In this document: piece by piece, positions 6,932-60,646 of the stretch
Numbering within the stretch: position 1 is the stretch's first letter
Layout of the letters: each line of letters starts with the position of its first letter
Assembly: GCA_020635715.1 (NCBI GenBank)
Contig: JACJZG010000007.1
Span: forward strand, 61,771 to 125,770
Origin: Flavobacteriales bacterium
Lineage (GTDB): Bacteria > Bacteroidota > Bacteroidia > Flavobacteriales_F > PHOS-HE28
Reading direction: 5' to 3'
DNA length: 64,000 nt
The notes under the pieces: generated by a model
What the model saw: only the letters and a program-made list of their open reading frames with translations
Database searches by the model: none
Told to the model about the DNA's origin: nothing
Position numbers and translations under genes: made by a program

Positions 6932-7109
6932 GGGGCGAAGTTCGAAGATCCCTGAGGAAAGGGCTCCATCCACCCAGGCTGCCCACGATCGACCGTTGAT
7001 CCATTGTGCCCGGTGGCGCGGATGGATCAATGATCACCGAAGAGCTTTGCGGCGTTCATGTCCACAACCTGTCCCGTTGGGCGGGATGCCCACATGGACA
7101 CATGCCCAC

Positions 7110-8474
7110 ATGTCGTCACAAGTCCATTTCATCGCGATCGGTGGCAGCGCCATGCACAACCTGGCCATCGCACTGCACCAGCAGGGCTTCGATGTCACCG
7201 GTAGCGACGATGAGATCTTCGAGCCGAGCCGCAGTCGATTGGAGCGCCTGGGCCTTCTGCCGGACAAGCTCGGTTGGGATCCGCTCCGTATCCACAAGGG
7301 GCTGAGCGCCGTGATCCTCGGCATGCATGCACGTCTGGACAATCCCGAGTTGAAGCGCGCACAGGAACTGGGCATACCCGTGTTCAGCTATCCCTCGTAC
7401 TTCCACGAGCGCACCAGACACAAGACCCGCGTGGTGATCGGCGGCAGTCATGGCAAGACCACCATCACCAGCATGATCGTGCATGTCCTGCGCCATGTCG
7501 GGGTGGACTTCGACTACCTCGTGGGCGCACAGCTCGATGGTTTCGACTGCATGGTGAAGCTCGGCGACAAGAGCACGGTGGCCATCATCGAGGGTGACGA
7601 GTACCTCGCCTCCGCCCTGGAACCCGTACCGAAGTTCCACCTGTACAAGCCGGACATCGCATTGATCAGTGGGATCGCCTGGGACCACATCAACGTCTTC
7701 AAGACCTTCGAGAGCTACGTGGACCAGTTCCGCCTCTTCATCGAGGCCATCGAGCCCGGTGGCAAGCTGGTCTACTGCAGGGAGGATGAGGTGGTGCGCG
7801 GCATCGCGGAGGAAAAGGGCGTGACCGCGCAACGTCTTGGTTACGGTACTCCGAAGCACCGCATCGTGGACGGGACCACCATCCTGGAGACGCACCTGGG
7901 CAATGTGCCATTGCAGGTCTTCGGTCAGCATAACCTGCAGAACATGGAAGGCGCGCGTCATGTCTGCCACCTGCTGGGCATCGGCGACGCGGACTTCAAT
8001 GCGGCCATCGCGACCTTCCATGGAGCAGCGAAGCGCCTGGAGCGCATCGGAGGTGATGCGCATCGCATGGTCTTCAAGGACTTCGCGCATTCACCCAGTA
8101 AGTTGAAGGCGACCGTCCAGGCCGTGCGCGAACAGTTCCCGGACCGTCAGCTCGTGGCCTGCATGGAGCTGCACACCTACAGCAGCCTCAGCGAGGAGTT
8201 CCTGGACCAATACGCGGGGTGCATGGATGCGGCGGATCGCGCCATCGTCTTCTACGACCCGCACGCGGTGCAGCTGAAACGCCTGCCACCCATTCCGCCG
8301 GAACGCATCCAACGGGCCTTCGCCCGAAAGGATGTGCAGGTCCTGAACGATCCCATCGCCGTGATCGGCGCGGTGCGCGAGGGGAGGGAGGAGGAGGCCG
8401 TGCTGCTCATGATGAGCAGCGGCAACTTCGGCGGGCTGGACCTTCAGGCCTTGAGCGAGGCGTTCATCGCCTGA
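7110..8474 (+). CDS. mpl: UDP-N-acetylmuramate:L-alanyl-gamma-D-glutamyl-meso-diaminopimelate ligase (peptidoglycan recycling, Mur ligase family)
   Basis: Mur-ligase N-terminal Rossmann (IAIGGSAMHNLAIAL…GSD); P-loop GGSHGKTTITSM; EGDEY motif; C-terminal FKDFAHSPSKL and LMMSSGNFGG typical of Mpl; the start was set at the internal ATG (MSSQVHFIAIGG) because the upstream extension of the ORF is arginine-rich junk. Confidence 0.8.
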   Translation: MSSQVHFIAIGGSAMHNLAIALHQQGFDVTGSDDEIFEPSRSRLERLGLLPDKLGWDPLRIHKGLSAVILGMHARLDNPELKRAQELGIPVFSYPSYFHERTRHKTRVVIGGSHGKTTITSMIVHVLRHVGVDFDYLVGAQLDGFDCMVKLGDKSTVAIIEGDEYLASALEPVPKFHLYKPDIALISGIAWDHINVFKTFESYVDQFRLFIEAIEPGGKLVYCREDEVVRGIAEEKGVTAQRLGYGTPKHRIVDGTTILETHLGNVPLQVFGQHNLQNMEGARHVCHLLGIGDADFNAAIATFHGAAKRLERIGGDAHRMVFKDFAHSPSKLKATVQAVREQFPDRQLVACMELHTYSSLSEEFLDQYAGCMDAADRAIVFYDPHAVQLKRLPPIPPERIQRAFARKDVQVLNDPIAVIGAVREGREEEAVLLMMSSGNFGGLDLQALSEAFIA

Positions 8475-8940
8475 GCTTCCGCAGCACCTTATGGTGCAGC
8501 ATGCCAATGGCCAATGCGTTGAATCCACCCGCGATCAGCAGCGTGAAGAAGGTCATGCTGGCATAGTTGAACGGCGTGAAGAACTTCTCCATGCGCGGTC
8601 GGATCACCTCCTCGGGCTGGCCATCGGCGGTACCTCGCGCCACGAGTTCCTCCACGCGCAGGTGGAAATGATCAGGCTCCACCCACCGGTAGTAGGCGAG
8701 CAGGAAGAGACTGAAGAGCAGTGCGTACACGGCGGCGCTCTTGAAGCCTTCACGCATCAGGTCCGGGAAGGAGGTCGATGGATCCCCCGTGATCATTCCT
8801 TGTCCGGTGAAGAACACGATGGTCACCAGGGCCAGGAAGTGTACGAGCATGAACTCCGTGCCTTCCGGCGGTCGCCCGAGCTTGAAGAGCAACACGCGAA
8901 GAGCCATGACGCTGATGACACCGAGGAGGGCGAGTCTCAT
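8464..8940 (-). CDS. hypothetical membrane protein (DUF4199-like)
   Basis: 158-aa ORF with 4 predicted TM segments; no catalytic motifs. Confidence 0.45.
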   Translation of the reverse strand: MRLALLGVISVMALRVLLFKLGRPPEGTEFMLVHFLALVTIVFFTGQGMITGDPSTSFPDLMREGFKSAAVYALLFSLFLLAYYRWVEPDHFHLRVEELVARGTADGQPEEVIRPRMEKFFTPFNYASMTFFTLLIAGGFNALAIGMLHHKVLRKLRR

Positions 8941-9105
8941 ATTAGCGACGAGTTTCCTTTCGAGCTGATGCGAGGTTCGAACCGATCTTTTGACATGGAC
9001 GATGCGAGTAGCCAGTAGCCAGTTCGCAGTTGACGGTTCCCTGCCATCAAGTTGAGAAGTATGGTGTCACAAAAAAGAAGGCTGTTCGATGCCAAAATGA
9101 TGCGG

Positions 9106-9513
9106 TCAAGGGCTTTTTCTCCGTTCAATTGCGCCGTACTTTCCAGGGTCGGTGATCATATCGGCGAGCAGTTTGCCTACCTCTTCTGATAGCTTTCGGA
9201 TCGGTAGGATGTCTTGTTCCACTAGGTATTCACAGGCAATGGCATGATCGAGCCAGACTTGAGTTTCTGAGTTCTCTCCGTCAGCATCGACCATTTTGGC
9301 TATGAATGACAGTGGATAGCGTCTCTTCCGATATCCTTCAGCGATCTGAGCCGTCACAGACCGTGATGAGCGTCTGATCTGATCCGTCAAGGAGTAGGTC
9401 TCTTCCTTCGGAAAGCGTTTGGAGATCCGGAATACCAAAGCCGAGATCTCAAAGGCCTTCTGATAGACGATCAAGTCCTTGAAACCAGCCATTCGCCGCT
9501 TGATTGAGAACAC
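9106..9513 (-). CDS. four-helix-bundle protein (family usually encoded in 23S rRNA intervening sequences)
   Basis: 135 aa; characteristic motifs [11 protein letters not shown]…, [19 protein letters not shown]…, QVWLDHA of the four-helix-bundle / S23 ribosomal-like family. Confidence 0.75.
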
Positions 9514-9530
9514 AGGTTAACTGTCCACCG

Positions 9531-9680
<150 letters not shown>

Positions 9681-9692
9681 AACTACTCAGAA

Positions 9693-11543
9693 CTACCCGT
9701 TCATACTCACCAGGAACTCCTCATTGCTCTTCGTTCCTTCCATGTGCTTCTTCACGAACTCCATGGCTTCCACGCTGTTCATGTCGGCCAGGTGCTTGCG
9801 CAGGATCCAGGTGCGTTGGAGCACATCCTTGTGATGCAGGAGATCATCGCGACGGGTGCCGCTGCTGAGGATGTCGATGGCAGGGAAGATGCGGCGGTTG
9901 CTGATCTTCCGGTCGAGCTGCAGTTCCATGTTGCCCGTTCCCTTGAACTCCTCGAAGATCACCTCGTCCATCTTGCTGCCCGTATCCACGAGGGCCGTGG
10001 CCAGGATGGTGAGCGATCCACCGTTCTCGATCTTCCGAGCCGCACCGAAGAACCGCTTCGGTTTCTGCAGGGCGTTGGCGTCCACACCACCGCTGAGGAT
10101 CTTGCCGCTCGCAGGCTGCACGGTGTTGTAGGCGCGCGCCAGACGCGTGATGCTGTCCAGCAGGATCACCACGTCGTGCCCGCACTCGGTGAGGGCCTTC
10201 GCCTTCTCCAAGACGATGCCGGCCACCTGTACGTGCCGTGATGCGGGCTCGTCGAAGGTGCTGGCGATGACCTCCGCGTTCACGCTGCGGGCCATGTCCG
10301 TCACTTCCTCCGGACGTTCATCGATCAGTAGGACGATCAGGTAGACCTCCGGGTGGTTGGCAGCGATCGCGTTGGCCACGTCCTTCAAGAGCACGGTCTT
10401 ACCGGTCTTCGGCTGTGCCACGATCAGGCCGCGCTGTCCCTTGCCGATGGGGGAGAAGAGGTCCAGCACCCGCATGCTGATGTTGGTGTCCTTGCCCGCC
10501 AGGTTGAACTTCTCGTCCGGGAAGAGCGGTGTGAGGAACTTGAAGGGCACCCGGTCACGCACCCATTCCGGATCACGGCCGTTGATCACATCCACCTTCA
10601 CCAACGGGAAGTACTTGTCGCCTTCGCGCGGCGGGCGCACATAGCCGTGCACGGTGTCGCCGAGCTTCAGGCCATACTGTTTGATCTGCTGCTGGCTCAC
10701 GAACACATCATCCGGCGAGGCCAGGTAGTTGTAATCGCTGCTGCGCAGGAAGCCATAACCCTCGGGCATCACCTCCAGCACGCCCTCGGTCTCCACGAAG
10801 GCATCGAAGCTCAGCTGTTCGCGCTGCTGCTGTTGCTGCTGGCGTTGGTCGTTCCGCTGGTCGTTGCGTTGCTGGTCGCGCTGTTGATCGCGGTCCTGCC
10901 GCTCGTTCCGCTGGTCCTGGTTGCGGTCGTTGCGCTGATCGCGGCGGTCGTTCTGGTGGCGCTCGCGACGGTCGTTGTCATGGCGTTGGTCACGCTCATT
11001 GCGTTGGTCACGGTCGTTGCGTTGATCGCGATCCTGGCGCTGACCGCGGTCATGCCGCTGGTCCTGGGGCCGGTCATCCCGTTGCTGATCGCGGTTCCGG
11101 TTCTGATCGGCAGGGATGCGTTCGCGACGGCCACGTTCCTGCTGGCGATCACCTCTCTGTGCGGGCTGTTCAGCTGCTGCGGGAGTGCTCGGCTTCTCCG
11201 GCTCGGCGCCGTTCTCCTCCTCCTCTTCGTCGTCATCCTCCTCACCGTTCTCGTCATCCTCGTCCAGGTCATCGTCATCCTCGTCCTCATCCGGTGCTGG
11301 TGGCTCGGGGTCTTCCACGGGAACCACCTCATCGGACGTGGCCAGTGCGGTCAACGCGGCATCATCACCCACGAAGTCCGGGCCGATGGACTTGGGCTTG
11401 TCACCCTTGGCGCCCTGTGCCTCGAGGATCTTGGTGATCAGGTCGACCTTCTTCAGGGACTCGGCCTTCTTCAGTTTCAGCTCGCGGGCGATCTCCTTCA
11501 ATTCGGAGAGCTTCATGCCGCTGAGTGCGGTCTGGTCGTACAT
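9693..11543 (-). CDS. rho: transcription termination factor Rho with long low-complexity (R/D/Q/N/E-rich) N-terminal insertion domain
   Basis: 616 aa; C-terminal ~420 aa is canonical Rho (CSD RNA-binding, Walker [18 protein letters not shown] loops); N-terminal [12 protein letters not shown]… followed by an acidic stretch and a (DQRNDR)n-like segment. Confidence 0.9.
10800..11110. repeat. imperfect in-frame DNA repeats inside rho encoding the (Q/R/N/D/E)-rich low-complexity insertion
   Basis: repeated cgctggtcgttgcg / gttgatcgcg units on the plus strand; the antisense 423-aa ORF here is a mirror artefact. Confidence 0.7.
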
Positions 11544-49653: not shown

Positions 49654-50249
49654 GAGCGGGGCTTTGCTGGGTTGATCGGCACCGTTGTACGGGGATCGGA
49701 ATTGAAGTGTTGCGTATTAGACTCGAGCTGTTCTTGGGTTCACTTCATCTCCCCGGCAATGGATCGGGGCATCCACGGATCGTGACCATGCTGATGAGGC
49801 TGGGAGGCCTGGGTACGTGGCTTGTGCTCTTCCTGAGGCGTACCGGAGGTGGTTGATCCGACGTTTGGAGCGGTGCTGAGGCGGATAGAAGCTTCGGTGT
49901 TCCCGAATGCAGGAATAGTGATGCGTTCTGGAATGAGGCGCCCGGCGGAAGGAGGTTCGGGCTCCTGGGTTAGAGGCTTCAGGCGAATGAGGCCAGTGGT
50001 TAAGGGGTTCGAGGTAAAGGGGCGAAGAGGTGTCTTGGCTATTGGAGAACGGACTGATCAGGTGGCTTTGGCCAGGGGTTCAATGGCCAGCGGCTGGGCT
50101 AATGGTGGCCGGAGGCCAAGGGGTTCGTGGCTTGGTGGTCAGCTATGGAAGCGTGACTGGCGCACTTGGCCTATTGATCCACAGGCTGGAGCAGCAAAGG
50201 TTCACTGTCCGCATTGCCGCAGCAGCACACCATCGTGCCTCCAACACAT

Positions 50250-51317
50250 TCACTTCCCCCAGACCTCCACGAGCCGGTCGATATCCGCCGTGCTGTTATA
50301 GAAGTGGATGCCCACCCGGATGCCCTTGCCGCGGAAAGCCACCTTCACGCCGTGCTCCTCCAAGCGCTTCACCTGCGTTTCGTCACCCTGGAGGAGCAGA
50401 ATGCCCGAACGCCGATCGGCATCACGACCATGCAACACGACGATACCCGCTTCATCGAAACGATCGATGGCATGGTCGCACAAGGCGTTCACGTGTGCTG
50501 CGATGCGCTGCGGACCGATGGCGGCGATGCGCTCCAGCGCGTCCTGCAGGCGCACCAGGGACACCGGGTCGCGGTGACCGGCGTTGAGCAGGGCGACCGG
50601 ATCCACGCCGTTACGCTCCTTCAGCTCCGCACGCACGGCTTCGCTGAGGTGGATGAAGCCATTGCCGAAACCGGCCAGGGGCCACTTGTAGCCACTGCCG
50701 CCGACGATGTCGATGCCCGCGGCGCGGAGATCCCAGGGCACGGCGCACCACGACTGCGTGATGTCCACCAAGGACCAGGCGCCGAGCGCCCGGCAGTGGG
50801 CGGCCAGGGCGGGCACATCGATGCGGAAGCCCGATAACCACTGCACCTCGCTGATGGCGACCAATTGCGGCCGTTCGCGTTCCATGGTCTCCCGGACCCT
50901 GTCGAGGGAGATGGTGCCATCCGCTTCCAGCGGCACCACCACGCGCTGGAAGCCCGGCAGGGCGAAGGGTGCATGCAATGTGGGATAGTCCTGCTCGATC
51001 AGGAGCACCTTGGTTCGATGGGCCAGCAAGGGTGCCAGCTGCGCCAGCCCTACGGTGAAACCCTGCACCAGCGCCGTGCCCTCCACGGTGCCGCCGATGC
51101 TCGCCGCCACGGTACGCGCCACCTCCGCGTTTATACCGAAGATCCATTGGAACAGACGCGCGCTGCCCTCGCGCATCAAGCATTGGTGCTCCGCGTGCGC
51201 GGCCTGCACGGTGCTCTCCGCCATCAGCCCCATGGAGGAGGTGTCCAAGTAGCAGCGTTCCTGCAGGGCGGGGTAGGCGGAGCGGAGGGTGGCGTGGTCG
51301 GAGAGGGTGTTGGGCAT
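50250..51317 (-). CDS. aminotransferase class V-fold PLP-dependent enzyme (cysteine-desulfurase-like)
   Basis: 355 aa; fold-type I pattern with GGSGYKW PLP-lysine region. Confidence 0.7.
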   Translation of the reverse strand: MPNTLSDHATLRSAYPALQERCYLDTSSMGLMAESTVQAAHAEHQCLMREGSARLFQWIFGINAEVARTVAASIGGTVEGTALVQGFTVGLAQLAPLLAHRTKVLLIEQDYPTLHAPFALPGFQRVVVPLEADGTISLDRVRETMERERPQLVAISEVQWLSGFRIDVPALAAHCRALGAWSLVDITQSWCAVPWDLRAAGIDIVGGSGYKWPLAGFGNGFIHLSEAVRAELKERNGVDPVALLNAGHRDPVSLVRLQDALERIAAIGPQRIAAHVNALCDHAIDRFDEAGIVVLHGRDADRRSGILLLQGDETQVKRLEEHGVKVAFRGKGIRVGIHFYNSTADIDRLVEVWGK

Positions 51318-51429
51318 GGCGCGAAGGTCGGATGTTCGGGATGAGCCTATGCCGGGCCAGAACGCAGGGTCCCCGAGGACGGGAGATCCTGCGGAGGTTA
51401 AAGACTATATTCCCACACTCAGAAGGCGC

Positions 51430-52518
51430 ATGGCATATTTCGACAACGCCAACATCGATGAAGAGGAGCGCAGAAACCACGCGTTCCAAGCAGTATGTGC
51501 AGTTCGCGAAGGTGTTAGTCTTGCGCGCAACGCCGGTCAGTCAATAACCTATGATCAGGCCTTCGATTTTATATATGAGATTAATCCGACCGCCCACGCT
51601 GGCATCATTCAGCTCTTGCTGCATCGGAACGACAATGACCTAGCACGCCGATTCAAAGAAACCGCACAGCTACTGTCCACGCCAGACAGGGTCGTGAATC
51701 CGGTGGACCTGATCAATGAGGAAATCTTGAAGCAACAGGCTATCATTAAAGACAAGAAGGATAAGGCCCAGCACACGATATCTTACATCAATCGACTCAT
51801 TGCCGCCCGAGACTACTTCGAACCGAGTGAGTTTCAATCAGAGAACCGAATTCTCAACCATGACATGTTTCTCCGTCAAAGGGCTGATGTTGTTCATCAG
51901 CTGTACAGCCATGATCACTATCAAGATTATGCGCTAGATAATCACCAGGTACTTAGGATGCGATTACTTCATCCGGACAAGGCAGAGGATATCCTAGGGG
52001 TGGACTTGATTTATGAGATTCACGATTTGAGCAAGATGAAGGTTCGATTTGTGCATCTTCAGTACAAGATGTGGGATGGTAAGGAACTCTATTTCTCGTC
52101 TTCAAAGAGTTTACGGAGCCAACTTGAAAAGATGGACTCGTGCCTCTGCAAGGCTGGTCACTGCTCTGACGCCAGCGGGCGTAAGTCGAATGACAGTTTT
52201 CGATTTCCTTTCTGTGCAGGATTCCTTCGTCCGACTAGCAAAATTCAGGATGCGAACAGCAAATTGGTGACCTCGGGCATTCATGTGCCGGCGTGTTTGG
52301 CAAACCGCTTGGCACAGACGTCCGTCAAGATTGACAAACCAGGAATTGCGCAGAGCTACATCAGTCATCACGTATTCGAAGAGGCATTCAACACGAACAT
52401 TCTCGGTTCGAAATGGATTGACCTCGATGATCTAAAGAAATTCTATGAGGACAAGGGCATTCTGAGTTACACTGATCGCATACGGATACACGCACAGCAA
52501 TTTGACCTCAGTTCTTGA
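51430..52518 (+). CDS. hypothetical protein, low-GC (~45%), candidate PD-(D/E)xK-like nuclease-fold protein with a Cys cluster (possible defence/abortive-infection gene)
   Basis: 362 aa from MAYFDNANI…; AT-rich codon usage unlike the rest of the window; …GVDLIYEIHDLSKMKVRFVHLQYKMW… resembles a D…(E/Q)xK nuclease core; CLCKAGHC…FPFCAGF Cys-rich segment. Confidence 0.5.
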   Translation: MAYFDNANIDEEERRNHAFQAVCAVREGVSLARNAGQSITYDQAFDFIYEINPTAHAGIIQLLLHRNDNDLARRFKETAQLLSTPDRVVNPVDLINEEILKQQAIIKDKKDKAQHTISYINRLIAARDYFEPSEFQSENRILNHDMFLRQRADVVHQLYSHDHYQDYALDNHQVLRMRLLHPDKAEDILGVDLIYEIHDLSKMKVRFVHLQYKMWDGKELYFSSSKSLRSQLEKMDSCLCKAGHCSDASGRKSNDSFRFPFCAGFLRPTSKIQDANSKLVTSGIHVPACLANRLAQTSVKIDKPGIAQSYISHHVFEEAFNTNILGSKWIDLDDLKKFYEDKGILSYTDRIRIHAQQFDLSS

Positions 52519-52654
52519 GATGCATTGTGAATCTGCATGCGCGATTGTAGCGGAAAGCCCACTGGCTGCTAATCCAGCCGAAGTCTTGTAGAGAAAAGCG
52601 CGACGGTGAGTCTCCTAGCCACCGGCACGCCCAGACATTCACGAAGCAAGTGTT

Positions 52655-52735
52655 CTACGACTGATCGAGCTTCTTCACCATCGTCAAGATCGCCGCCAAC
52701 GCCACGGTCTCGCTTCTCATTGATCACCGCGCTGT
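52655..52735 (-). repeat. degenerate copy of paaZ 3'-terminal segment (type II subfamily; 2-nt deletion and mutated stop region)
   Basis: …cttcaccatcgtcaagatcgccgccaacgccacggtctcg-cttctcattgatcac… aligns to copies at 54162 and 56446. Confidence 0.7.
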
Positions 52736-53040
52736 AATCCCTTGTTCACGCTATTCAGCGAATCAATTGTGACGACGTAGCCGCTCATGATGCTGCGCAG
52801 GACCTTCGCTTCCATCATGGCTTTATCCAGATCGTAAGTTCCGCGGTTCAAGGCGGCTCGTAATGAATCGATCTGAGCGCGTTGCACGTTCATCTCGAAC
52901 GCGATCTGCTCATTCTCTACTGACAGTGCGTTGTACTGCTCGAGCATGGAACCCAGCAGGTGCTTGAGGGAGTCGCAGTTGGATTGTGCGCTCAAGGTGG
53001 TGGAGCAGAGGAGGAGGAAAGGTAGAAGGAGGGGACGCAT
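52717..53040 (-). CDS. hypothetical secreted coiled-coil protein
   Basis: start at MRPLLLPFLLLCSTTLSAQ signal; lower GC. Confidence 0.4.
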   Translation of the reverse strand: MRPLLLPFLLLCSTTLSAQSNCDSLKHLLGSMLEQYNALSVENEQIAFEMNVQRAQIDSLRAALNRGTYDLDKAMMEAKVLRSIMSGYVVTIDSLNSVNKGLQRGDQ

Positions 53041-53121
53041 GGATGTCTTTGTCTTAGCTGCGGTGGTTGTAAAGATCTGGACAACGCTATGGTCTCGTGG
53101 TCGCATACTTCTCTTTCTCCT

Positions 53122-53685
53122 TCACACGGCAGCGATCGCCAGTCGCCACCCTTCCCGTGTCTCGTGGGCGTAGAGATGGAGGGCGATATCGCTCCCGCAG
53201 CCCATGCCGAAGTCGCGTGCGAAGAAGGCAAGGAACCCTTGCGAGGGGAGGAAGCGTCGGTGGTCGGTATCGGCGATCATGGTCTTGAGCGCCGGGGTAA
53301 AGAGGAAGTCGTACCGCTCCAGGGCATTGGCGGCGGTCATTTCGGTACCGCGGTGTTCGGCTTCGTGCTGCGCGAAGTAGGCGGTATCGCAGGTCACGGA
53401 GAAGTTCCACTCGTGAACGAGGAGTTGATGGATGGGATAGTCAAGCATGGCCACGACCTCGGTCCGGCGGTCGGCCAGCACGGCATGCTGAAAGCGTTGC
53501 CAGAACTGCGCGAGGGCGACGCTGTCGATCGGGATCTCTTCGCAACCGCCCTGGAAGGGAAGTTGCTCTTCCGGCAATGGGGTCTCTTCCAGCGCCGGGT
53601 TCGTACAGGCCAGTGTGAGGCAACTGATGATCAGGGAAAGGAGTAGCGCAGTGCGCAGCTTGGTCCGTCGTGCACAGCTTTCCAT
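53122..53685 (-). CDS. hypothetical lipoprotein
   Basis: lipobox LIISCLTLAC; lower GC. Confidence 0.42.
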   Translation of the reverse strand: MESCARRTKLRTALLLSLIISCLTLACTNPALEETPLPEEQLPFQGGCEEIPIDSVALAQFWQRFQHAVLADRRTEVVAMLDYPIHQLLVHEWNFSVTCDTAYFAQHEAEHRGTEMTAANALERYDFLFTPALKTMIADTDHRRFLPSQGFLAFFARDFGMGCGSDIALHLYAHETREGWRLAIAAV

Positions 53686-54128
53686 CAGTAAGTCGTATGC
53701 CAGTTGATGAAGTGGTTCCTCAGATCCTTCAACATCGCTCGCGTATAGATATCGTAGAGCTTCCCATTCGAGCTGAAGTAGGCAACGACCACCACGAAGG
53801 ACTTCGTGTAGATGAACTCATAGGTGGACCGGTCGTCGGGCGGGAAGAAGGCCTCCACGCTATCGGATACCGCCTTGTTGAAGAAATGGAGGCTCACGCC
53901 TTCGTTGTCCCCATCCTCCCGCGCCGTTAAGGGAGTGAAGAGATGGGCCGTGTATGCCTTCGTGCGTTTGCCGCCGATGGGGAACTCATGTACGCCCCAG
54001 TCACTGACCGTCCAGTCATTCGACAGTTCGTAGTCGAGTTGGGCAAGGCGTGCTCGTTGCTCACTATTCAGCTGTGCATGGAGGGTCGTTGCTAACCTTA
54101 GAAAGCCGATCAGAATGAGACATCGCAT
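53685..54128 (-). CDS. hypothetical secreted protein
   Basis: signal MRCLILIGFLRLATTLHAQ; lower GC (~45%). Confidence 0.42.
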   Translation of the reverse strand: MRCLILIGFLRLATTLHAQLNSEQRARLAQLDYELSNDWTVSDWGVHEFPIGGKRTKAYTAHLFTPLTAREDGDNEGVSLHFFNKAVSDSVEAFFPPDDRSTYEFIYTKSFVVVVAYFSSNGKLYDIYTRAMLKDLRNHFINWHTTY

Positions 54129-54161
54129 GCTCTTTGAACGCGACGGGAAAGACTGGATTGT

Positions 54162-54295
54162 TCAGTTCTGATCGATCCTCTTCACCATCGTCAAGATCGT
54201 CGCCAAGGCCACGGTCTCGCCGGTCTCATCGATCACAGCCTGTCCCGCCTTAGCGGAATTCACCAGCCACTTCACGATGCCTTTGTTACATGCGT
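54162..54295 (-). repeat. copy of paaZ 3'-terminal segment (encodes …GIVKWLV…VIDETGETVALATILTMVKRIDQN*), forming the end of a 62-aa ORF
   Basis: nucleotide and peptide identity to the paaZ C-terminus. Confidence 0.8.
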
Positions 54296-54778
54296 GTCCC
54301 CAAAAGCACTCCTTACATTGTCCGTGTCGCCCCAAAGTCGGCTTGCGCACCAGCTCGCAAGAAGGAGGGCGACGAGGTTAAGCCCTACGAATGAATCCAT
54401 GGGCTGTTGCCAGCTCACAAGAAAGGCGGACAGGCTGAACTTGAACTGCACGATGAGCGGTTCTTTCAACGGAACACCGACAACTAATGCAAGACCCGAA
54501 AAGAACTTGTAGGTGAAGACCTGGTCCACGGAGAAGGTGAAGACCTGGGTGAGTTGGATCAGGAATGCAAGGCGGAGAAATGCACCGGACCGCGCCTTCA
54601 AGCCCACGTATCCGCAATAGGCGGAAAGAAGGAAGAATAGAAATGCTGCGAAACAGACAAGCAGTTCCTCCGTCGAGAGCTCATTGCCCTGCAGCACCAT
54701 GATAATGACCAAGGCGCAGCCGAGGACCCCGCCAGCCAAATGATAGTAGGCCAGAAGTCTTGCTTGCGCCGGTTTCAT
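54272..54778 (-). CDS. hypothetical membrane protein (5-6 TM)
   Basis: 168-aa hydrophobic ORF. Confidence 0.42.
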   Translation of the reverse strand: MKPAQARLLAYYHLAGGVLGCALVIIMVLQGNELSTEELLVCFAAFLFFLLSAYCGYVGLKARSGAFLRLAFLIQLTQVFTFSVDQVFTYKFFSGLALVVGVPLKEPLIVQFKFSLSAFLVSWQQPMDSFVGLNLVALLLASWCASRLWGDTDNVRSAFGDTHVTKAS

Positions 54779-54784
54779 TTAGTC

Positions 54785-54925
54785 AGGTTGCTCAATTATC
54801 AACTTCATTCGGCTGGATCGTCGCCAGCATCGCCTTCGCGTAGCCGCTGCGGCGGAGCAAGGCGCCACGGTCTCGCCGGTCTCATCGACCACGTCCAAGA
54901 AGACTTCGAAGCATACGGTTCCATG
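54785..54925 (-). repeat. diverged copy of paaZ 3'-terminal segment with ~35-nt insertion
   Basis: …gcgccacggtctcgccggtctcatcgaccacgtcc… encoding …VFLDVVDETGETVA…. Confidence 0.7.
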
Positions 54926-54942
54926 TCTATTGGGGCGATGGG

Positions 54943-55206
54943 TTAATTGATCAGGTGCCATATGACAGCGAACGGCAGCACTAAGAAGAGAGCGAACCAC
55001 AACTCGATGTGGAGCTTGCGGGCGGGATTCTTCGGGAAGAACCGAAGGAGTAGAAGGCCATAGATCGTGTACAACGCTAGGAACCCCAGGCACAGCAGGA
55101 GTGCATGTCCTGAGAACATCGTATCTCCTGCGTTGTCGGCCGCAACGATCAGCATGCCGATCACCGCAGGGTTGATGGCAACCAATGCGTATGACCTCCA
55201 CTTCAT
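54943..55206 (-). CDS. hypothetical small membrane protein (3 TM)
   Basis: 87-aa hydrophobic ORF. Confidence 0.4.
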   Translation of the reverse strand: MKWRSYALVAINPAVIGMLIVAADNAGDTMFSGHALLLCLGFLALYTIYGLLLLRFFPKNPARKLHIELWFALFLVLPFAVIWHLIN

Positions 55207-55218
55207 CGCAATACGAGG

Positions 55219-55695
55219 TCAGTTCTGATCCAGTTTCTTGACCATCGTAAGAATGGTTGCCAACGCAACCGTTTCCCCCGTTTCATCCACCACATCCACC
55301 AACCACTTCACGATCCCCCGCGCCACATCCGCGCCCTTGGGTGAGTCGGCGGTCTTCGGCCGTTTCTTCCGCCCTCGCCAAAGCGCTTCGGCGGACGAAG
55401 CCTGATCGAGCTTCTCGCGGCAGGTGAACTTCACCTGCCCCGGGTCAAGCTCGGGGTGACAGGTGGAGCCGGGGTAGATGGGTCCCGCTGAGGCGGGATT
55501 TCGCTGCCGCTCAACTTGCGAGCGGCATTCCTCGATGCCGTAGTTGAGGAGCACCGGGCTTTTTGGCGGGGCCACGCCCTTTGGCAGGCTGAGGGTGTGG
55601 CCAGCGGTACGGCTGGGCACGACGGCTGTTCGCGGAACGTGATAAGCTTGCGCCGGGCCATGACCCAGGGCGAAGCGGGGCGCGTTCATGCTCAT
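55219..55695 (-). pseudogene. partial duplicate of the paaZ 3' end (~380 nt; MaoC hot-dog C-terminal region with indels), read-through ORF of 158 aa
   Basis: …PPKSPVLLNYGIEECR…IYPGST…VKFTCREKLDQ…KRPKTADSPKGADVARGIVKWLVDVVDETGETVALATILTMVKKLDQN aligns to PaaZ residues ~575-688 with three insertions; ~90% nt identity over the last 200 nt. Confidence 0.75.
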
Positions 55696-56042
55696 CGGAC
55701 CGTGATGCCATTACGGTCCAACTCGATCAAGCCCCCGTCTTTAAGCGCTTCGCACATCAGGTCGAGGTAGTTCATGATGAGGAGGATCAGCTCGGAGTTC
55801 CGGATGTTGCCTGTACCCACATACACCAACCGCTTCGGTTCTCCCTTCACCTCGTAAGCAGCGATGAAATCGGCATCCTTGGTCACGACCACCGCCCCTT
55901 CGCGGTCGGCGTGTGCGATGATGGCCTGGTCCGTGGTGAGATGCCCTTGCGGCAACTCTGAAGCATGAAGGGCGTGATGGCCGCGCTTCTTGAACGCCGT
56001 GGCCAGCTGATGCGGCAGCTGGGTGTCCACCAGCCAGTTCAC
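55692..56042 (-). CDS. DUF5615 family PIN-like toxin-like protein
   Basis: 116 aa; conserved MNWLVDTQLP… N-terminus; paired with upstream DUF433 gene (4-bp overlap). Confidence 0.62.
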   Translation of the reverse strand: MNWLVDTQLPHQLATAFKKRGHHALHASELPQGHLTTDQAIIAHADREGAVVVTKDADFIAAYEVKGEPKRLVYVGTGNIRNSELILLIMNYLDLMCEALKDGGLIELDRNGITVR

Positions 56043-56281
56043 TGCGCCGCGCGGTGGATGGATTTCACCTCGGTGACCTTGGCTGCGAATGCCAGGCAGG
56101 CCAGGAAGTCATCCTTCTCCAATTCGGGATGGTCGCGCATGATATCCTCGGTGCTCATGCCACTGGCCATCAGCTCCAACACGTTCTGAACTGGCCAGCG
56201 CATGCCGCGCACCACAGCCTTGCCGTGGCAGATGTTCGGATCGGTGGTAATGCGGGAAAGAAGGTCGACAGGACTGCTCAT
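56039..56281 (-). CDS. DUF433 domain protein (antitoxin-like partner of DUF5615)
   Basis: 80 aa; …ITTDPNICHGKAVVRGMRWPV… DUF433 core. Confidence 0.62.
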   Translation of the reverse strand: MSSPVDLLSRITTDPNICHGKAVVRGMRWPVQNVLELMASGMSTEDIMRDHPELEKDDFLACLAFAAKVTEVKSIHRAAQ

Positions 56282-56291
56282 GCTATCAAAG

Positions 56292-56441
56292 TTAGGTGGT
56301 CTTCGGCCTTGCGGCGCTCAGCACTTCGGTCAAGGACCTTCGCTTGAGCTTGCCGGTACGGATGCGCTCCACTTGCACCAAAGCCTTTGCGAGCTTGCTG
56401 CGTAGTTCCTGAACTTGCCGTTGGTGCCTCGTATGCACCAT
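56292..56441 (-). CDS. hypothetical basic 49-aa protein, first gene of the DUF433/DUF5615 unit
   Basis: MVHTRHQRQVQELRSKLAKALVQVERIRTGKLKRRSLTEVLSAARPKTT; 10-nt spacing to DUF433 start; not in supplied ORF track (under 60 aa). Confidence 0.25.
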   Translation of the reverse strand: MVHTRHQRQVQELRSKLAKALVQVERIRTGKLKRRSLTEVLSAARPKTT

Positions 56442-56445
56442 GTGT

Positions 56446-56538
56446 TCAGTTCTGATCAAGCTTCTTTAAAATCGTGAGGATAGTGGCCAGTGCCACGGTC
56501 TCGCCCGTTTCATCCACCACGTCCACCACGTACTTCAT
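56446..56538 (-). repeat. copy of paaZ 3'-terminal segment forming a 30-aa mini-ORF (MKYVVDVVDETGETVALATILTILKKLDQN*)
   Basis: nucleotide and peptide identity to paaZ C-terminus. Confidence 0.8.
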
Positions 56539-56539
56539 T

Positions 56540-56998
56540 TCAGATCGCTAGTTCAGGCACAAAGCCTGTGAGGACTTCCTTCACAGTCCCGGAACGCTTC
56601 TCTACGGTGAATCCATCTGCCAGTACTTCAAGCATGTCATCATGGAAGCAGAGGATGTAGTGCTTCACAGAAGCCCATCGCGTTGGGTCGTATCGGTCAT
56701 GCACGCTGTGGACCTTCTGCAGTTCCTTCAGCCAAGCTGAATTCTCCACCTCGTGAGCGCTGTAGGGATCAAGGCCCTTCCCATAAAGTGGGTGCCCGGA
56801 TAGGATCTCATCGTTGATCCCGCTGAACCGATGAGCCCGATCGCGATGGAAGGTAACAACGCCAACGCTTTCCTCTTCTTCAAGGGCAACGTTGTACAAA
56901 AGGGTCAAACCTCTATCGCTGGCAAGAACCACCGGGCAAGTTGCACCCGCGCTCCATTTCGGCTCCCAAGCAATGACACGCGCCCGCTCCATGATCAA
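56540..56998 (-). CDS. hypothetical protein (152 aa), start overlapping paaZ stop by 4 bp
   Basis: clean ORF, no motif recognised. Confidence 0.45.
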   Translation of the reverse strand: MIMERARVIAWEPKWSAGATCPVVLASDRGLTLLYNVALEEEESVGVVTFHRDRAHRFSGINDEILSGHPLYGKGLDPYSAHEVENSAWLKELQKVHSVHDRYDPTRWASVKHYILCFHDDMLEVLADGFTVEKRSGTVKEVLTGFVPELAI

Positions 56999-59061
56999 TT
57001 CTGATCCAGCTTCTTCACCATGGTGAGGATAGTGGCCAAGGCAACCGTTTCCCCAGTTTCATCAACCACATCCACCAGCCACTTCACGATCCCCCGCGCC
57101 ACATCCGCACCCTTCGGTGAGTCGGCGGTCTTCGGCCGTTTCTCCTGGTCCAGCTTCTCCCTGCACGTGAACTTCACCTTGATCGTTGATCCCGGGTACA
57201 CCGGCTTCAAGAAGCGGCACTCCTCGATGCCGTAGTTGAGGAGCACCGGGCCCTTCGGTGGATCCACGAAGAGGCCCGCCGCCCGGCTGAGGATGAAGTA
57301 GCCATGCGCCACGCGACCGGTGAAGGGCGTGCCGTCCAAGGCGTTCTCATCCATGTGCGCATAGAAGCGGTCGCCGCTCAGCGCGGCGAAGTCCTCGATG
57401 TTCTGCAGCGTCACCAGGTGGGTCTCACTGATCAGCGTGTCGCCGATGTTCAGCTCTTCGAAGTGCAGCTGGAAGGGATGCTTCTCGGTGATGTGGTAGG
57501 TGGCGCCCTGCTGGTATTGCTGGGTGAGGGCGGTGATCATGCTGGGGTGGCCCTGGATGGCGGTGCGCTGCAGGTAGTGCATCACGCCGCGCTTGCCGCC
57601 CATCTCTTCGCCGCCGCCCGCGCGACCGGGCCCTCCGTGTACCAATGTGGCCAACGGACTGCCGTGGCCGGTGTTCTCCTTGGCCATGTCGCGGTTGAGC
57701 ACCAGCATGCGGCCGTGGTGGCTGGCCGCGCCCCAGACGAATTGTTGCGCGTACTTGTCGTTGTGCGTGGCGATGGTTGCCACGAGCGAGCCCTTGCCGA
57801 GCTTGCTGAGCGCCACGGCATCGTCGAGGTCCTTGTAGGGCATCAAGGTGCTCACCGGACCGAAGGCCTCCACGTTGTGGCTCACCTGGTTCTTCCAGGG
57901 ATCGTTGTTGTAGAGCAGGATGGGGCTCATGAAGGCACCCTTCGCCGCGTCGGCACCGGTCACGTTCACGCTGTCCGGATCGCCGAAGACCACTTGCGAA
58001 CCTTTCAGCAGTTCGCCGAGCGCGCGCTTCACTTCCTCGCGCTGCGTCTTCCCCGCCAGCGCGCCCATGCGTACACCTTCCGCACGCGGGTCGCCGATCA
58101 CGGTGCTGCCGAGGCGCTTGCCCAGGGCGATCTGCACATCCTCCAGCACGTTCTCGGGCACCATGATGCGCCGCGCGCCGGTGCAGCGTTGGCCGCACTT
58201 GAGCGTGATCTCGCGCGTGACCTCCTTGATGAAGAGGTCGAACTCCTCGGTGCCCGGCACGGCGTCGGGGCCGAGCACGATGGCGTTGAGGCTGTCGGCC
58301 TCCATGTTGAAGGGCACGCTCTCGTCCACGATGCGTGGGTGGCGCTTGAGCATGCGGCCCGTGCTGGCGCTGCCGGTGAAGGTGACCACGTCCTGCTGCA
58401 TCACGTGGTCCAGCAGCCCATCGGCGCTGCCGCAGATGAGCTGGATGGCGCCCTCGGGCACGATGCCGCTGGCCACGATGTCCTTCACCATGGCCTCGGT
58501 GAGGTAGCTGGTGACGGTGGCGGGCTTCACCACGGCGGGCACGCCGGCCATCCAGTTCACCGCCACCTTCTCCAGCATGCCCCAGATGGGGAAGTTGAAG
58601 GCGTTGATGTGCACGGCCACGCCCTCCTTGGGCACCATGATGTGGTGACCGATGAAGGTGCCGTTCTTGCTGGTCTTGATGGCCTCGCCGTCCACATAGA
58701 AGGGCATGTTGCCCAGCGTGCGGCGCAGGCTCGCGTTGGCGAAGAGGTTGCCGATGCCGCCCTCGATGTCCACCCAGCTATCGGGCTTGGTGGCGCCGGT
58801 CTTGTAGCTGATCTGGTAGTACTTGTCCTTGCGCTCCATCAGGTGGAGGGCGAGGGCCTTGAGCATGCGGCCCCGCTCGGGGAAGGTCATTTTACGCAGG
58901 GGTGGGCCGCCCACCTCACGGCCGTACTTCAGCATCGCGCCGAAGTCGAGTCCGCCGGAGGAGGTGGTGGCGATCAGTTCGCCGGTGGAGGCGTCAACGA
59001 GTTCCGCTTGCTTGCCTGAACCGGCCACCCATTGGCCAGCGATGTAGTTCTTCAGTTGCAT
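56995..59061 (-). CDS. paaZ: bifunctional aldehyde dehydrogenase / enoyl-CoA hydratase (MaoC hot-dog) PaaZ
   Basis: 688 aa; N-terminal ALDH fold; C-terminal MaoC hot-dog (…GDTLISETHLV…, terminal β-strands RGIVKWLVDVVDETGETVALATILTMVKK). Confidence 0.85.
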   Translation of the reverse strand: MQLKNYIAGQWVAGSGKQAELVDASTGELIATTSSGGLDFGAMLKYGREVGGPPLRKMTFPERGRMLKALALHLMERKDKYYQISYKTGATKPDSWVDIEGGIGNLFANASLRRTLGNMPFYVDGEAIKTSKNGTFIGHHIMVPKEGVAVHINAFNFPIWGMLEKVAVNWMAGVPAVVKPATVTSYLTEAMVKDIVASGIVPEGAIQLICGSADGLLDHVMQQDVVTFTGSASTGRMLKRHPRIVDESVPFNMEADSLNAIVLGPDAVPGTEEFDLFIKEVTREITLKCGQRCTGARRIMVPENVLEDVQIALGKRLGSTVIGDPRAEGVRMGALAGKTQREEVKRALGELLKGSQVVFGDPDSVNVTGADAAKGAFMSPILLYNNDPWKNQVSHNVEAFGPVSTLMPYKDLDDAVALSKLGKGSLVATIATHNDKYAQQFVWGAASHHGRMLVLNRDMAKENTGHGSPLATLVHGGPGRAGGGEEMGGKRGVMHYLQRTAIQGHPSMITALTQQYQQGATYHITEKHPFQLHFEELNIGDTLISETHLVTLQNIEDFAALSGDRFYAHMDENALDGTPFTGRVAHGYFILSRAAGLFVDPPKGPVLLNYGIEECRFLKPVYPGSTIKVKFTCREKLDQEKRPKTADSPKGADVARGIVKWLVDVVDETGETVALATILTMVKKLDQN

Positions 59062-59149
59062 GGGAGCGAAGTTCGGGAGGAAAGGCTATCCGCCGATGGC
59101 GCAGATGACACAGATGAATGCCAAGCTGTTCTGAGCTATCTGTGACATC

Positions 59150-59350
59150 GGCGCCATCTGTGGATGAATGGCATTTAGGCGTGTCGGCTCGTCCATCGGC
59201 TCGCTCAGGATGCCGCCTAAGTCGAGGCCGCCTGTAACGGTGGTGTTGATGAACTCGCCGGTGAAGGCGTCGTGGAGTTCGGCGTGGGAGCCGATGCCTT
59301 TGGCCCAGGAACCGGCGATATGATCCTCCAACTGCACGCGTCCCTTGCCG
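59150..59350 (-). repeat. diverged (~70% nt) duplicate of the paaZ 5' end (first ~50 codons) lying ~120 bp upstream of paaZ
   Basis: translation VQLEDHIAGSWAKGIGSHAELHDAFTGEFINTTVTGGLDLGGIL aligns to PaaZ MQLKNYIAGQWVAGSGKQAELVDASTGELIATTSSGGLDFGAML. Confidence 0.7.
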
Positions 59351-59404
59351 GATAGTCGGGAGGATCGAAGTTCGGCCCGGGTGACGGTAACTTCCTGACC
59401 TCCA

Positions 59405-60646
59405 TCACGGCACATACACCCGCCCTTGGTAGCGCCTTCCATCATCCGTGAGCAATTCCCAAAGCAAGGCTCCGCCGGGGCAGCCGAACCGCGACACGGA
59501 ACCCGTGATCCGCGTGGAACGCAGCAGCCTTCCGGAGAGGTCGTGGAGCGTGAAGAGGCCGGCGGAGGAAGGCGCCACGACCTCGAGCATGCCGGGAGCC
59601 ACGGAGCGTATTGCTGCAACACGATCCTCGACTTCCGCGATGCCCACACCGCTGACATGCCAGACCACCTGCGTCCAACTCCACGTATCGGTGAAGCCAC
59701 AGAGGTCGGTGTAGGTATGTGTGAATTCGTAGGATCCGGGTTCGAGCGCGAAGACGGGCTGCTGTGCGGTGCTGCTCTGCCCGTTGGAGCAGGTCCAAAG
59801 ATGCTGGCCCTCGCCCGGATGGAAGAGGGTGAGGGTGCTGGGTGGTGCCAGATCGGAACCGCTGATGTGCGCGCTCATGCCGGGCGATCCGAAGAGGCGC
59901 CACGTATCGGCACTGTCCAGCACAGCGGAACTGGCGATGGTCTGCAGGGCCGTTGCGACCTCTTGTTCCAAGGCGCTGGTGAACGGGGCACCCGAACAGG
60001 AGCTTTGGAAGATGGTCGTGTAGAAGACGCAGGCGGCCAGGTAGGTGCCGGCAGGGGTGGGGTGGCTGCCATCGGCTTCGTACAGGTCGATATCGGGTCG
60101 TTCCGTACGGACCCGTTGCCAGGCCGCACCCACGGCGGCCGCGCGCCCGAAGTTCTCCTCGGTCATGAGCAGATAGCGTTCGCGCAGGAGGTCCTGCATG
60201 CCTTGGTAGGTGCATACCGGCGGCCAGGTCGGGCATTGCTGCTCGTCCCCGTTCTCGCGCCCCCAGGTCATGTAGAAGACAGGAAGGGTGCATTCGTGGT
60301 TCAGCTTGATCAAGTCCACCAAGGCCCGCGCGGCACCGAGGCAGCTGGCGAGCGCCGTGTTGCTCGGATGGACGGAGGGGATCTGGCTTTGCTCCTGCAA
60401 CACCACCACATCCCAGGGTCGTGCATTGATCGCGTTGAGGGTGGGGCCGTACTCCCGATGCTGCTCCAACCGGAACCCACCGGGCGCGGAAAGGTCCACC
60501 TCCACCGTGTCACCGAGCGAGAGCGCCAGGAGCCTGAACGTGTTGGGCAGGTCGTTCTGGGTGGTGTAGCTGTTGCCGATGAAGAGTACGCTGGTGTGCG
60601 CTGGCAGGAAGGCGGGAAGCAGGATGAAGACCGGGATCAGCCGCAT
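59405..60646 (-). CDS. SGNH/GDSL-type hydrolase family protein with T9SS C-terminal sorting domain
   Basis: signal peptide; block I VLFIGNSYT; …DVVVLQEQS…; C-terminal ~80-aa CTD-like region. Confidence 0.6.
   Translation of the reverse strand: MRLIPVFILLPAFLPAHTSVLFIGNSYTTQNDLPNTFRLLALSLGDTVEVDLSAPGGFRLEQHREYGPTLNAINARPWDVVVLQEQSQIPSVHPSNTALASCLGAARALVDLIKLNHECTLPVFYMTWGRENGDEQQCPTWPPVCTYQGMQDLLRERYLLMTEENFGRAAAVGAAWQRVRTERPDIDLYEADGSHPTPAGTYLAACVFYTTIFQSSCSGAPFTSALEQEVATALQTIASSAVLDSADTWRLFGSPGMSAHISGSDLAPPSTLTLFHPGEGQHLWTCSNGQSSTAQQPVFALEPGSYEFTHTYTDLCGFTDTWSWTQVVWHVSGVGIAEVEDRVAAIRSVAPGMLEVVAPSSAGLFTLHDLSGRLLRSTRITGSVSRFGCPGGALLWELLTDDGRRYQGRVYVP

Follow-up and report, generated by a model that had tools for sequence, protein, structure and literature searches.

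In a 64-kb stretch of DNA from a Flavobacteriales bacterium (contig JACJZG010000007.1, hereafter the window), the metabolic gene paaZ is followed by an array of small genes interleaved with truncated copies of its own 3′ end. Within its clade, paaZ is an isolated conserved gene set between two hypervariable accessory regions, and both of its ends are landing pads for accessory DNA. The arrays were very probably built by successive insertions at the gene ends, in which a replacement end arrived each time and the old one was displaced. The resident end is not overwritten but pushed outward, where it survives as a truncated fragment, and the array runs from paaZ through cargo, fragment, cargo, fragment and so forth to a native fragment and native downstream sequence. 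The same process is seen in mirror image at the paaZ 5′ end. As to how the units enter, we give an even chance to a homology-anchored insertion that is independent of any recombinase.

The paaZ 3′ array in the window

All coordinates are window positions, and paaZ and its 3′ array lie on the minus strand (Table 1). The gene is a paaZ ortholog with Aldedh and MaoC_dehydratas domains in Pfam; its counterpart on Saprospira plasmids is annotated paaZ, and an exact-protein look-up of the window PaaZ returned no record. It was compared with 80 species-representative paaZ loci, using about 20 kb around the gene in each relative. The 13 closest loci (L001–L013), all from uncultured and mostly activated-sludge Flavobacteriales, encode proteins that are 82–92% identical to the window PaaZ over residues 1–688 (L001–L012) or 75% identical (L013).

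The original prediction described five co-oriented copies of the paaZ 3′ end downstream of the gene, and these proved to be true homologs. A tblastn search with the last 140 amino acids (aa) of PaaZ finds all five, and repeat finding recovers them independently. Three match clearly (56449–56547, E 1e-10; 55222–55575, E 8e-42; 54165–54284, E 5e-11) and two weakly (54863–54898, E 0.58 when taken alone; 52658–52711, E 0.002); at the nucleotide level, the two weak copies are 89–93% identical to paaZ ends of relatives (E 1e-8 to 2e-18). The original description needs correction for three of the copies: copy 3 is decayed with only LDVVDETGETVA intact, copy 5 retains only ETVALAAILTMVKKLDQS*, and copy 2 carries three small insertions. 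Fragment 1 differs from the functional end by 11 synonymous and two non-synonymous changed codons. The last 149 nt of fragment 2 are 91% identical to the functional end and encode an amino-acid sequence that is 100% identical; its upstream part is degenerate, with hairpin-like insertions at about 55481–55521, 55434–55462 and 55367–55401. Fragment 3 matches relatives at 89–93% over 36–41 nt, its insert and tail being judged by eye.

The small open reading frames (ORFs) between the copies are those listed in the original prediction, the first counted as 150 or 152 aa. The 150-aa protein (P0001) is identical to H6592_06585 in an NCBI Flavobacteriales metagenome-assembled genome. Cassette 2 has Pfam matches to DUF433 (E 8e-23) and DUF5615 (E 3e-19) in overlapping reading frames, probably representing a toxin–antitoxin pair. 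No other cargo matched a family in Pfam, NCBIfam or PADLOC. The three ORFs of cassette 5 overlap or lie 15 nt apart, and a protein identical to the 129-aa product has a precomputed DUF8429 match that our own family scan did not reproduce. Fourteen independent contigs from JGI, ENA and Logan (L201–L214), which come from unrelated assemblies and match the window array, span its junctions at 99–100% identity; the array is therefore real and not an assembly artefact.

Within 50000–60500, repeat finding extended just one other interspersed direct repeat beyond about 35 nt, an upstream copy of the 5′ end of paaZ. In the whole window, the direct repeats of at least 40 nt that do not belong to the paaZ 3′ families are all tandem or low-complexity. 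About 30 tandem copies of the heptamer ACTGCCT/ACTGCCC lie at 9485–9708.

Table 1. Features at and around paaZ in the window (GC3, GC content at third codon positions)
Feature	Position	Strand	Description	Basis
paaZ 5′ fragment	59206..59337	−	Displaced 5′ end, first 44 codons, 57% amino-acid identity, E 3e-10	
paaZ	56995..59061	−	Intact, 688 aa, aldehyde dehydrogenase and MaoC hydratase	ORF, identity to relatives
Terminal segment of functional paaZ	56995..57143	−	Foreign-looking replacement end	GC3, identity drop about −65 from stop
Cassette 1 cargo	56540..56992	−	150-aa ORF, function unknown, begins 2 nt past the paaZ stop	
Fragment 1	56446..56538	−	Final 93 nt of paaZ with stop, MKYVVDVVDETGETVALATILTILKKLDQN*	
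Cassette 2 cargo	55692..56441	−	49-aa ORF, DUF433 (80 aa) and DUF5615/PIN-like (116 aa)	
Fragment 2	55219..55610	−	Long copy	Repeat finding, tblastn
Cassette 3 cargo	54943..55206	−	87-aa hydrophobic ORF	No family found
Fragment 3	54790..54900	−	Decayed; LDVVDETGETVA intact, then 35-nt insert and degenerate tail up to the next ORF	
Cassette 4 cargo	54272..54778	−	168-aa hydrophobic ORF	Identical protein in 7 independent contigs
Fragment 4	54162..54290	−	KGIVKWLV..IDETGETVALATILTMVKRIDQN*, in-frame hairpin insert at about 54237–54260 (CCGCTAAGGCGG)	
Cassette 5 cargo	52717..54128	−	Three ORFs of 147, 187 and 129 aa, signal-peptide-like N termini	
Fragment 5	52655..52727	−	Native (ancestral) paaZ end, ETVALAAILTMVKKLDQS*, high-GC3 allele	
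Native downstream sequence	52491..52609	.	Conserved element with two hairpins	Alignment to L008–L012
409-aa ORF	51289..52518	+	About 47% GC, convergent with the array, variable region rather than cassette	

Native and imported gene ends

The paaZ end exists in two nucleotide versions. The high-GC3 version (GAGACCGTGGCG..GATCTTGACGATGGTGAAGAAG..CAGTCGTAG) is the sole end in array-less L002, L004 and L005, and the outermost fragment in the window, L001, L003, L008, L009, L010 and L013. Fragment 5 of the window is 93% identical to the sole paaZ end of L002 and to the outermost fragment of L003, and it runs into 52491–52604, the sequence that lies directly behind paaZ in L012 and is kept in L008–L011. 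The material between the copies was thus inserted, as had been proposed, since the outermost copy and 52491–52604 match the paaZ ends of array-less loci (L012, L002, L004).

The functional genes carry the complementary signature. GC3 in the last 150 nt of paaZ is 0.60–0.82 in nine of nine array-bearing genomes versus 0.84–0.92 in four of four array-less ones, without overlap, and about 0.9 in the remainder of the gene; in the window it is 0.70 in the last 150 nt versus 0.82–1.00 upstream. L003 and L013 follow L002 at 94–99% identity up to about −105 from the stop codon and then fall to 73%, and comparable switch points lie at about −295 in L001 and −65 in the window. GC3 and the switch points together indicate that the functional gene ends in imported sequence and that the original end was displaced, which bears out the proposal that a replacement 3′ end came with each insertion.

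Inner and outer copies are 73–91% identical and differ in GC3. When fragments are compared with the functional end of their own genome, 183 codons have changed synonymously and 21 non-synonymously; because the changes are almost only synonymous, the divergence must have arisen while the sequences served as paaZ ends. All fragments have the clade signature VDV[VF]DETG, in place of the VDVYDETG found in every other Bacteroidota PaaZ in the set, and the imported ends are therefore clade-internal. The VDVYDETG-bearing Bacteroidota genes nearly all have much lower GC3. Despite their clade-internal origin, the imported ends have GC3 below that of any full-length clade gene.

Among 26 distinct intact fragments, none of the 26 third-codon positions is conserved and no invariant stretch is longer than 2 nt, which leaves no DNA-level core for a site-specific recombinase. 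Of the original prediction of iterative site-specific integration with tandem accretion, accretion at a gene 3′ end stands, but a site-specific event was not supported, because boundaries and switch points vary and an invariant core is absent. Fragments within the window share identical runs of 8–30 nt, and such short runs should keep the array fairly stable against deletion.

The native element behind the array (52491–52609) has kin at L008 14885–15040, L011 5120–5250 and 6080–6210, and L012 12040–12200, being duplicated in L011 and partly in L008. Over its roughly 120 nt, it contains the motif GCTTTCCGCTGCAA twice and two hairpins that, judged by eye, differ by paired changes between genomes. 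For the region, Rfam gives only a sub-threshold Flavo-1 match, at 52533–52609 on the + strand, opposite paaZ (27 bits, E 0.027, gathering score 42), and nothing at the gathering score for the element in seven relatives.

Mirror-image arrays at the paaZ 5′ end

Displaced 5′ fragments comprise about 100–130 nt of pre-start sequence and the first 27–67 codons of the gene. They occur in L003, L004 (two), L006, L008 (four), L010, L011, L013 and the window (one), and co-oriented cargo genes lie between the upstream fragments. In the window, nothing separates the 5′ fragment from the upstream region of functional paaZ, so that this unit has no cargo. L004 has two 5′ and zero 3′ fragments, whereas the window has one and five; since fragment numbers per genome are unrelated, growth on the two sides is independent.

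Recurrence across the clade

At least 15 related genomes or contigs, all of one Flavobacteriales clade, share this architecture, and about 180 more remote paaZ loci lack it. Eight of the 13 closest loci (L001, L003, L006–L010 and L013) have between one and five additional 3′ fragments downstream of paaZ and, together with the window, constitute the filled 3′ sites; L011 has short 3′ remnants only. The empty site that the original prediction suggested looking for is found in L002, L004, L005 and L012. By tblastn, extra 3′ fragments are absent from all 67 more distant species-representative loci. A metagenome scan of 120 further paaZ loci found arrays in five (L101, L144, L154, L156 and L171), with the other 115 being single-copy; L144 and L154 have a full paaZ end, which places them in the same clade.

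Contigs reached through homologs of the 150-aa cargo (L215, L216/L217 and L218–L223) brought to light another three arrays, each with three to five fragments, and homologs of this cargo lie within the paaZ arrays of L215, L216 and L218. Close relatives carrying the same small ORFs without the repeats would have refuted the original prediction; in the relatives, however, the recurring cargo is also flanked by paaZ fragments. For the 150-aa cargo, a remote homolog from a different phylum-level context (L224) sits in an ordinary gene neighbourhood and was uninformative. Self-BLAST of the clade loci returned almost only paaZ-end repeats, with a few others in L002, L005, L006 and L012.

Junctions and cassette movement

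Fragments start between about −57 and −360 from the stop codon, with clusters near −93 (L001, L003, L013, window fragment 1 and L203) and −264 (the window, L006, L007 and L144). Cargo begins 0–33 nt past the stop codon in every cassette examined, amounting to more than 12 different cassettes. The cargo-less units of L001, L003 and L013 have 40–48 nt between the stop codon and a 93-nt native fragment. In L011, the repeat consists of the last ~20 nt of paaZ, a spacer and the downstream element, and its 197-nt copies, at 91% identity, flank a DUF433/DUF5615 pair.

Cassettes recur in different contexts. A HicAB-like unit follows the second fragment in L007, the third in L009 and the functional gene itself, in first position, in L010. 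The DUF433/DUF5615 unit is shared by the window, L010 (75.7% nucleotide identity), L144 and L011. The strain variant L203 has LprI-like cargo instead of the 150-aa cargo of the window, and its identity to the window begins inside fragment 1, between GAGACCGTGGC and ATCCTCACG, a cassette swap by crossover within the fragment. In L207, the fragment behind the toxin–antitoxin pair is 190 nt shorter, and the L008 array contains an internal duplication of a 623-nt unit at 94% identity.

The 49-aa ORF of the window (56292–56441) is similar to the C-terminal half of an antitoxin-like protein of 72 aa that is paired with a 114-aa RelE/ParE-like toxin in L009 (12153–12371) and L010 (14086–14304). L010 also has two truncated HicB copies. 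The half-antitoxin ORF and these copies mark the cassettes as mosaics of earlier ones.

Hairpin inserts of 18–36 nt occupy at least six positions in displaced paaZ fragments, including one 5′ fragment. Their types include TCCCGC-NNNN-GCGGGAC and CACCCCGAGCTTGACCCGGGG, and most are multiples of 3 nt that leave the frame open; one 24-nt insert sits after GAT at two separate paaZ positions. In the window they lie at the three fragment 2 sites given above, at 54237–54260 and at about 54828–54862, and in relatives at L003 10163, L010 13626, L156 525, L171 343 and L216 7884. A genome-wide repeat family was considered and rejected, as the inserts are nearly absent elsewhere in about 350 kb of clade DNA. 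They could be colonisers of intercistronic DNA, similar to repetitive extragenic palindromic elements, or a component of the mechanism.

Search for mobility functions and surroundings of the arrays

The reported absence of an integrase, transposase or insertion sequence from the 64-kb window was upheld, with no such family among about 50 plausible window genes. More widely, no integrase was found within about 10 kb either side of paaZ in 214 loci. Among 92 ORFs downstream of paaZ in relatives, the best 25 of 54 Pfam families include no recombinase. Phmmer searches with XerD and Hin probes, which are of limited sensitivity, gave zero matches among 3530 ORFs from all loci. A pattern scan of viral contigs gave 0 matches to the conserved paaZ end, and by BLAST the array matched no phage and, among plasmids, only the paaZ of two Saprospira plasmids. 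These 53-kb plasmids carry the annotated gene (NZ_CP110855.1, 9112–9211; NZ_CP116809.1, 49548–49643; PLSDB), and a paaZ carried on a plasmid would lend itself readily to integration at the chromosomal gene by a single crossover. No tRNA or tmRNA target was found in the window. Terminators and promoters in the array were not above chance, the promoter model being one that does not fit Bacteroidota.

The integron-like analogy of the original prediction did not hold as a mechanism. Single-stranded DNA folds of five fragments on both strands revealed no shared hairpin, eight of the ten having z scores of −1.2 to +1.6; fragment 2 alone folds significantly, through a private palindrome. The GGTTGCGTTGGCAACC palindrome, suggested as an attC-like hairpin, is an accident of codon choice confined to one copy.

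The window also encodes a ComEC-type competence protein (PF03772, E 8.5e-60; ORF set 31–29339), so the organism possesses, at a minimum, the channel for DNA uptake that natural transformation requires.

Beyond the arrays, the region is hypervariable, with an abundance of defence-type genes, including restriction-modification, NACHT, paired reverse transcriptase and RelA/SpoT genes. Pfam families downstream in relatives include type I restriction-modification, Dcm, Mrr, and MazG-like with HNH. Just past the array, L215 has two adjacent RVT_1 reverse-transcriptase genes (6684–9942; 664 and 425 aa), and the equivalent place in L216 holds a NACHT/NA-iREase2 protein and a RelA_SpoT protein. The outer side of the arrays thus resembles a defence island. 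The 409-aa ORF of the window lies in a stretch of 47% GC, compared with about 64% for the genome, and has no match in Pfam, NCBIfam or PADLOC; a GVD...LQYK motif recognized by eye is PD-(D/E)xK nuclease-like, and the ORF, which belongs to the variable region past the array, may have a role in defence.

Mechanism and alternative explanations

In a homology-anchored insertion, one side of the incoming DNA would recombine within the paaZ end while the other side would join at a variable position within or just past it. Homology-facilitated illegitimate recombination is one possible route, and another is a single crossover with a circle carrying a paaZ-end segment; either would duplicate the stretch between the two joints. 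In favour of such a mechanism stand the lack of a nucleotide core, the variable boundaries, the independent use of both gene ends, the L203 exchange inside a fragment, the shared cassettes at differing ranks and the failure to find a recombinase in the loci searched. The variable junction positions are also compatible with illegitimate joints, with microhomology, at the far side of newly acquired segments. Existing fragments would then act as portable homology, through which homologous recombination between strains could swap, add, duplicate and delete cassettes. The cargo appears to be promoterless, and it is co-oriented and tightly spaced, with reading-frame gaps of −4 to +33 nt; its transcription thus probably starts at the paaZ promoter, and its translation is probably coupled to the reading frame before it.

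Several observations sit uneasily with homology-anchored insertion. Several fragments with different cargo share start positions (about −93 and −264), and the precise start of cargo behind the stop codon, which illegitimate joining does not predict, is better matched by a dedicated cassette mechanism. The switch point (about −105) and the start of the displaced fragment (about −93) nearly coincide in L003 and L013, the outcome that a single reciprocal crossover would give. Ends that are clade-internal yet low in GC3 suggest that they have long been carried by mobile cassettes and were not captured from the chromosome of a neighbour. Natural competence, at which the ComEC homolog of the window hints, is a tentative assumption. 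Array rank does not track fragment decay (Spearman rho −0.04, p 0.83), a gradient being seen in L156 and L216 only; with no significant age gradient overall, the notion that new units always enter next to paaZ was dropped.

The main rival to a homology-anchored mechanism, which we consider somewhat unlikely, holds that the units are miniature integrative elements, or decayed remnants resembling cis-mobilizable elements, moved by a site-specific recombinase acting in trans on an attB in the paaZ 3′ end, with the gene-end mimic as attP and a second enzyme or site for the 5′ end. A replacement end together with a displaced native end is the classic attL/attR picture, and low-GC3, clade-specific ends look like sequences that have travelled with mobile DNA for a long time. 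The recurrent fragment starts, the near-coincidence in L003 and L013 and the cargo placed precisely past the stop codon speak for it as well, as does the junction between degenerate, hairpin-bearing sequence and intact sequence at about −150 in the long fragments of both the window and L010. However, no such recombinase was found within about 10 kb of paaZ in the 214 loci or in the window, the longest invariant run across the 26 fragments is 2 nt, and fragment starts (−57 to −360) and switch points (−65 to −295) vary widely. Both gene ends are targeted, the L011 repeat reaches beyond the stop codon into the downstream element, the L203 exchange point is unlike other junctions, and no copy was found on the viral contigs, phages or plasmids searched. 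A dedicated cassette system lacking a cis-encoded integrase, in which units mimic either gene end at the protein level and the hairpin inserts belong to the recombination or expression machinery, is unlikely in our view; because such units carry the mimic, their insertion would always regenerate the gene, and promoterless cargo would come under paaZ transcription and translational coupling. An integron-type mechanism, with the paaZ end as attI and the fragments as attC sites whose folded strands are recognised by an IntI-type integrase, is effectively excluded. The compact, promoterless, co-oriented cassettes, rich in toxin–antitoxin genes and small unknowns, do recall sedentary chromosomal integrons, and terminator-like sites within the array are no more frequent than chance, but neither IntI nor any tyrosine recombinase was found nearby, and the fragments, which share no secondary structure, are homologous coding sequence under protein constraint, unlike attC; there are, moreover, 5′-end arrays that carry a copy of the promoter region.

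Two further explanations dispense with mobile units altogether. The fragments might be working parts, either short translated ORFs or reused C-terminal domains, kept by selection rather than left as scars. Most are open, their starts overlap or abut the preceding stop (ATGA at 55692–55695, TGAAATG at 56536–56542), small insertions are mostly multiples of 3 nt, non-synonymous change is very low, and translation up to the fragment stop could drive re-initiation on the next cargo gene. Nevertheless, we find this very improbable, as the fragments are truncated at many points and retain anything between 18 and about 120 codons, several are clearly decaying (fragment 3 of the window and outer ones in L156, L215 and L216, for example), the 35-nt insert breaks the frame of fragment 3, the amino-acid sequence follows the PaaZ variant of the host and not the cassette, and 18–30 residues of a hot-dog fold are unlikely to fold alone. 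Purely local tandem duplication, deletion and decay without horizontal input deserves scarcely any weight. Such events clearly contribute, as in the duplicated unit of L008, and the cargo-less units of L001, L003, L013 and the window 5′ fragment would suit them. As a complete explanation, however, they are contradicted: copies within one genome differ by 13–27% at synonymous sites and in GC3, cargo has a GC content of about 53–57% versus 64% and differs between genomes, and the same cargo occurs at different ranks in different genomes.

Relation to known systems and significance

Precedents exist for each ingredient of these arrays, namely gene-end replacement, displaced remnants, integrase-less units and compact promoterless cassettes. 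For the effector–immunity clusters of the Vibrio cholerae type VI secretion system (T6SS), Kirchberger et al. (2017) proposed array growth by homology-facilitated illegitimate recombination, and spread of whole T6SS effector–immunity/rhs arrays by ordinary homologous recombination (PMC5361080). As in C-terminal displacement at T6SS and rhs loci, there is a conserved anchor, a new module beside it and older material outward with gene-end remnants, all without an integrase; paaZ shows the conserved anchor, the older end as an outer remnant and a foreign allele in the active copy. In contrast, what serves as anchor at paaZ is terminal coding sequence belonging to a housekeeping-type metabolic gene, which is regenerated intact every time, the arrays lack a polymorphic toxin domain and use both gene ends, and the cargo comprises unrelated small genes (toxin–antitoxin pairs, secreted and membrane proteins) rather than cognate immunity genes.

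Restriction-modification units inserted with long target duplication, by a mechanism described as unknown, were reported by Furuta, Abe and Kobayashi (2010), some of the targets overlapping a gene 3′ end (PMC2853133). The likeness lies in small units, direct repeats of more than 30 bp and of variable length that are single-copy at the empty site, and the absence of mobility genes. However, the repeats in that case are near-identical, being the recipient's own sequence, whereas the inner paaZ copy is usually a diverged foreign allele (73–91%), the closest paaZ case being the 197-nt repeat of L011. The paaZ events are also iterated into arrays, at both ends of one gene and across a clade.

The arrays also bear comparison with integrative and conjugative elements, integrative and mobilizable elements and cis-mobilizable elements. 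Tandem accretion at the 3′ ends of genes and tRNAs is familiar, including integrase-less cis-mobilizable elements and, as with tycheposons, cargo-only satellites. Replacement gene ends, direct repeats flanking units, arrays of partial copies and some units without an integrase are features in common, but those elements have a defined core site and an integrase-bearing member, neither of which was found in the loci searched around paaZ, and the paaZ units are only 0.05–1.5 kb long and start no more than 33 nt from the stop codon. With chromosomal integron arrays, the paaZ arrays share compact, promoterless, co-oriented cassettes, many of them toxin–antitoxin genes or unknowns, behind a single promoter; they differ in lacking IntI and an attC fold, and in having repeats that are homologous coding sequence. 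In a limited literature search, we found no description of iterated arrays at both ends of one metabolic gene, clade-wide, with toxin–antitoxin and small-protein cargo.

Most accessory-gene hotspots lack recognisable mobile-element machinery, and the route by which genes enter them is an open question. The scars at paaZ are unusually legible, with a truncated gene-end copy for each event, on both sides of the gene and in many related uncultured genomes, and strain-level variants are present in public activated-sludge metagenomes. Legible scars and strain variants together make the insertion mechanism directly testable with long-read data. Should the ends of a conserved gene be enough to assemble integron-like arrays of toxin–antitoxin and other small genes, many hotspots without an integrase may have arisen in the same way, and it would follow that foreign alleles can take the place of gene ends time and again while the gene keeps its function.

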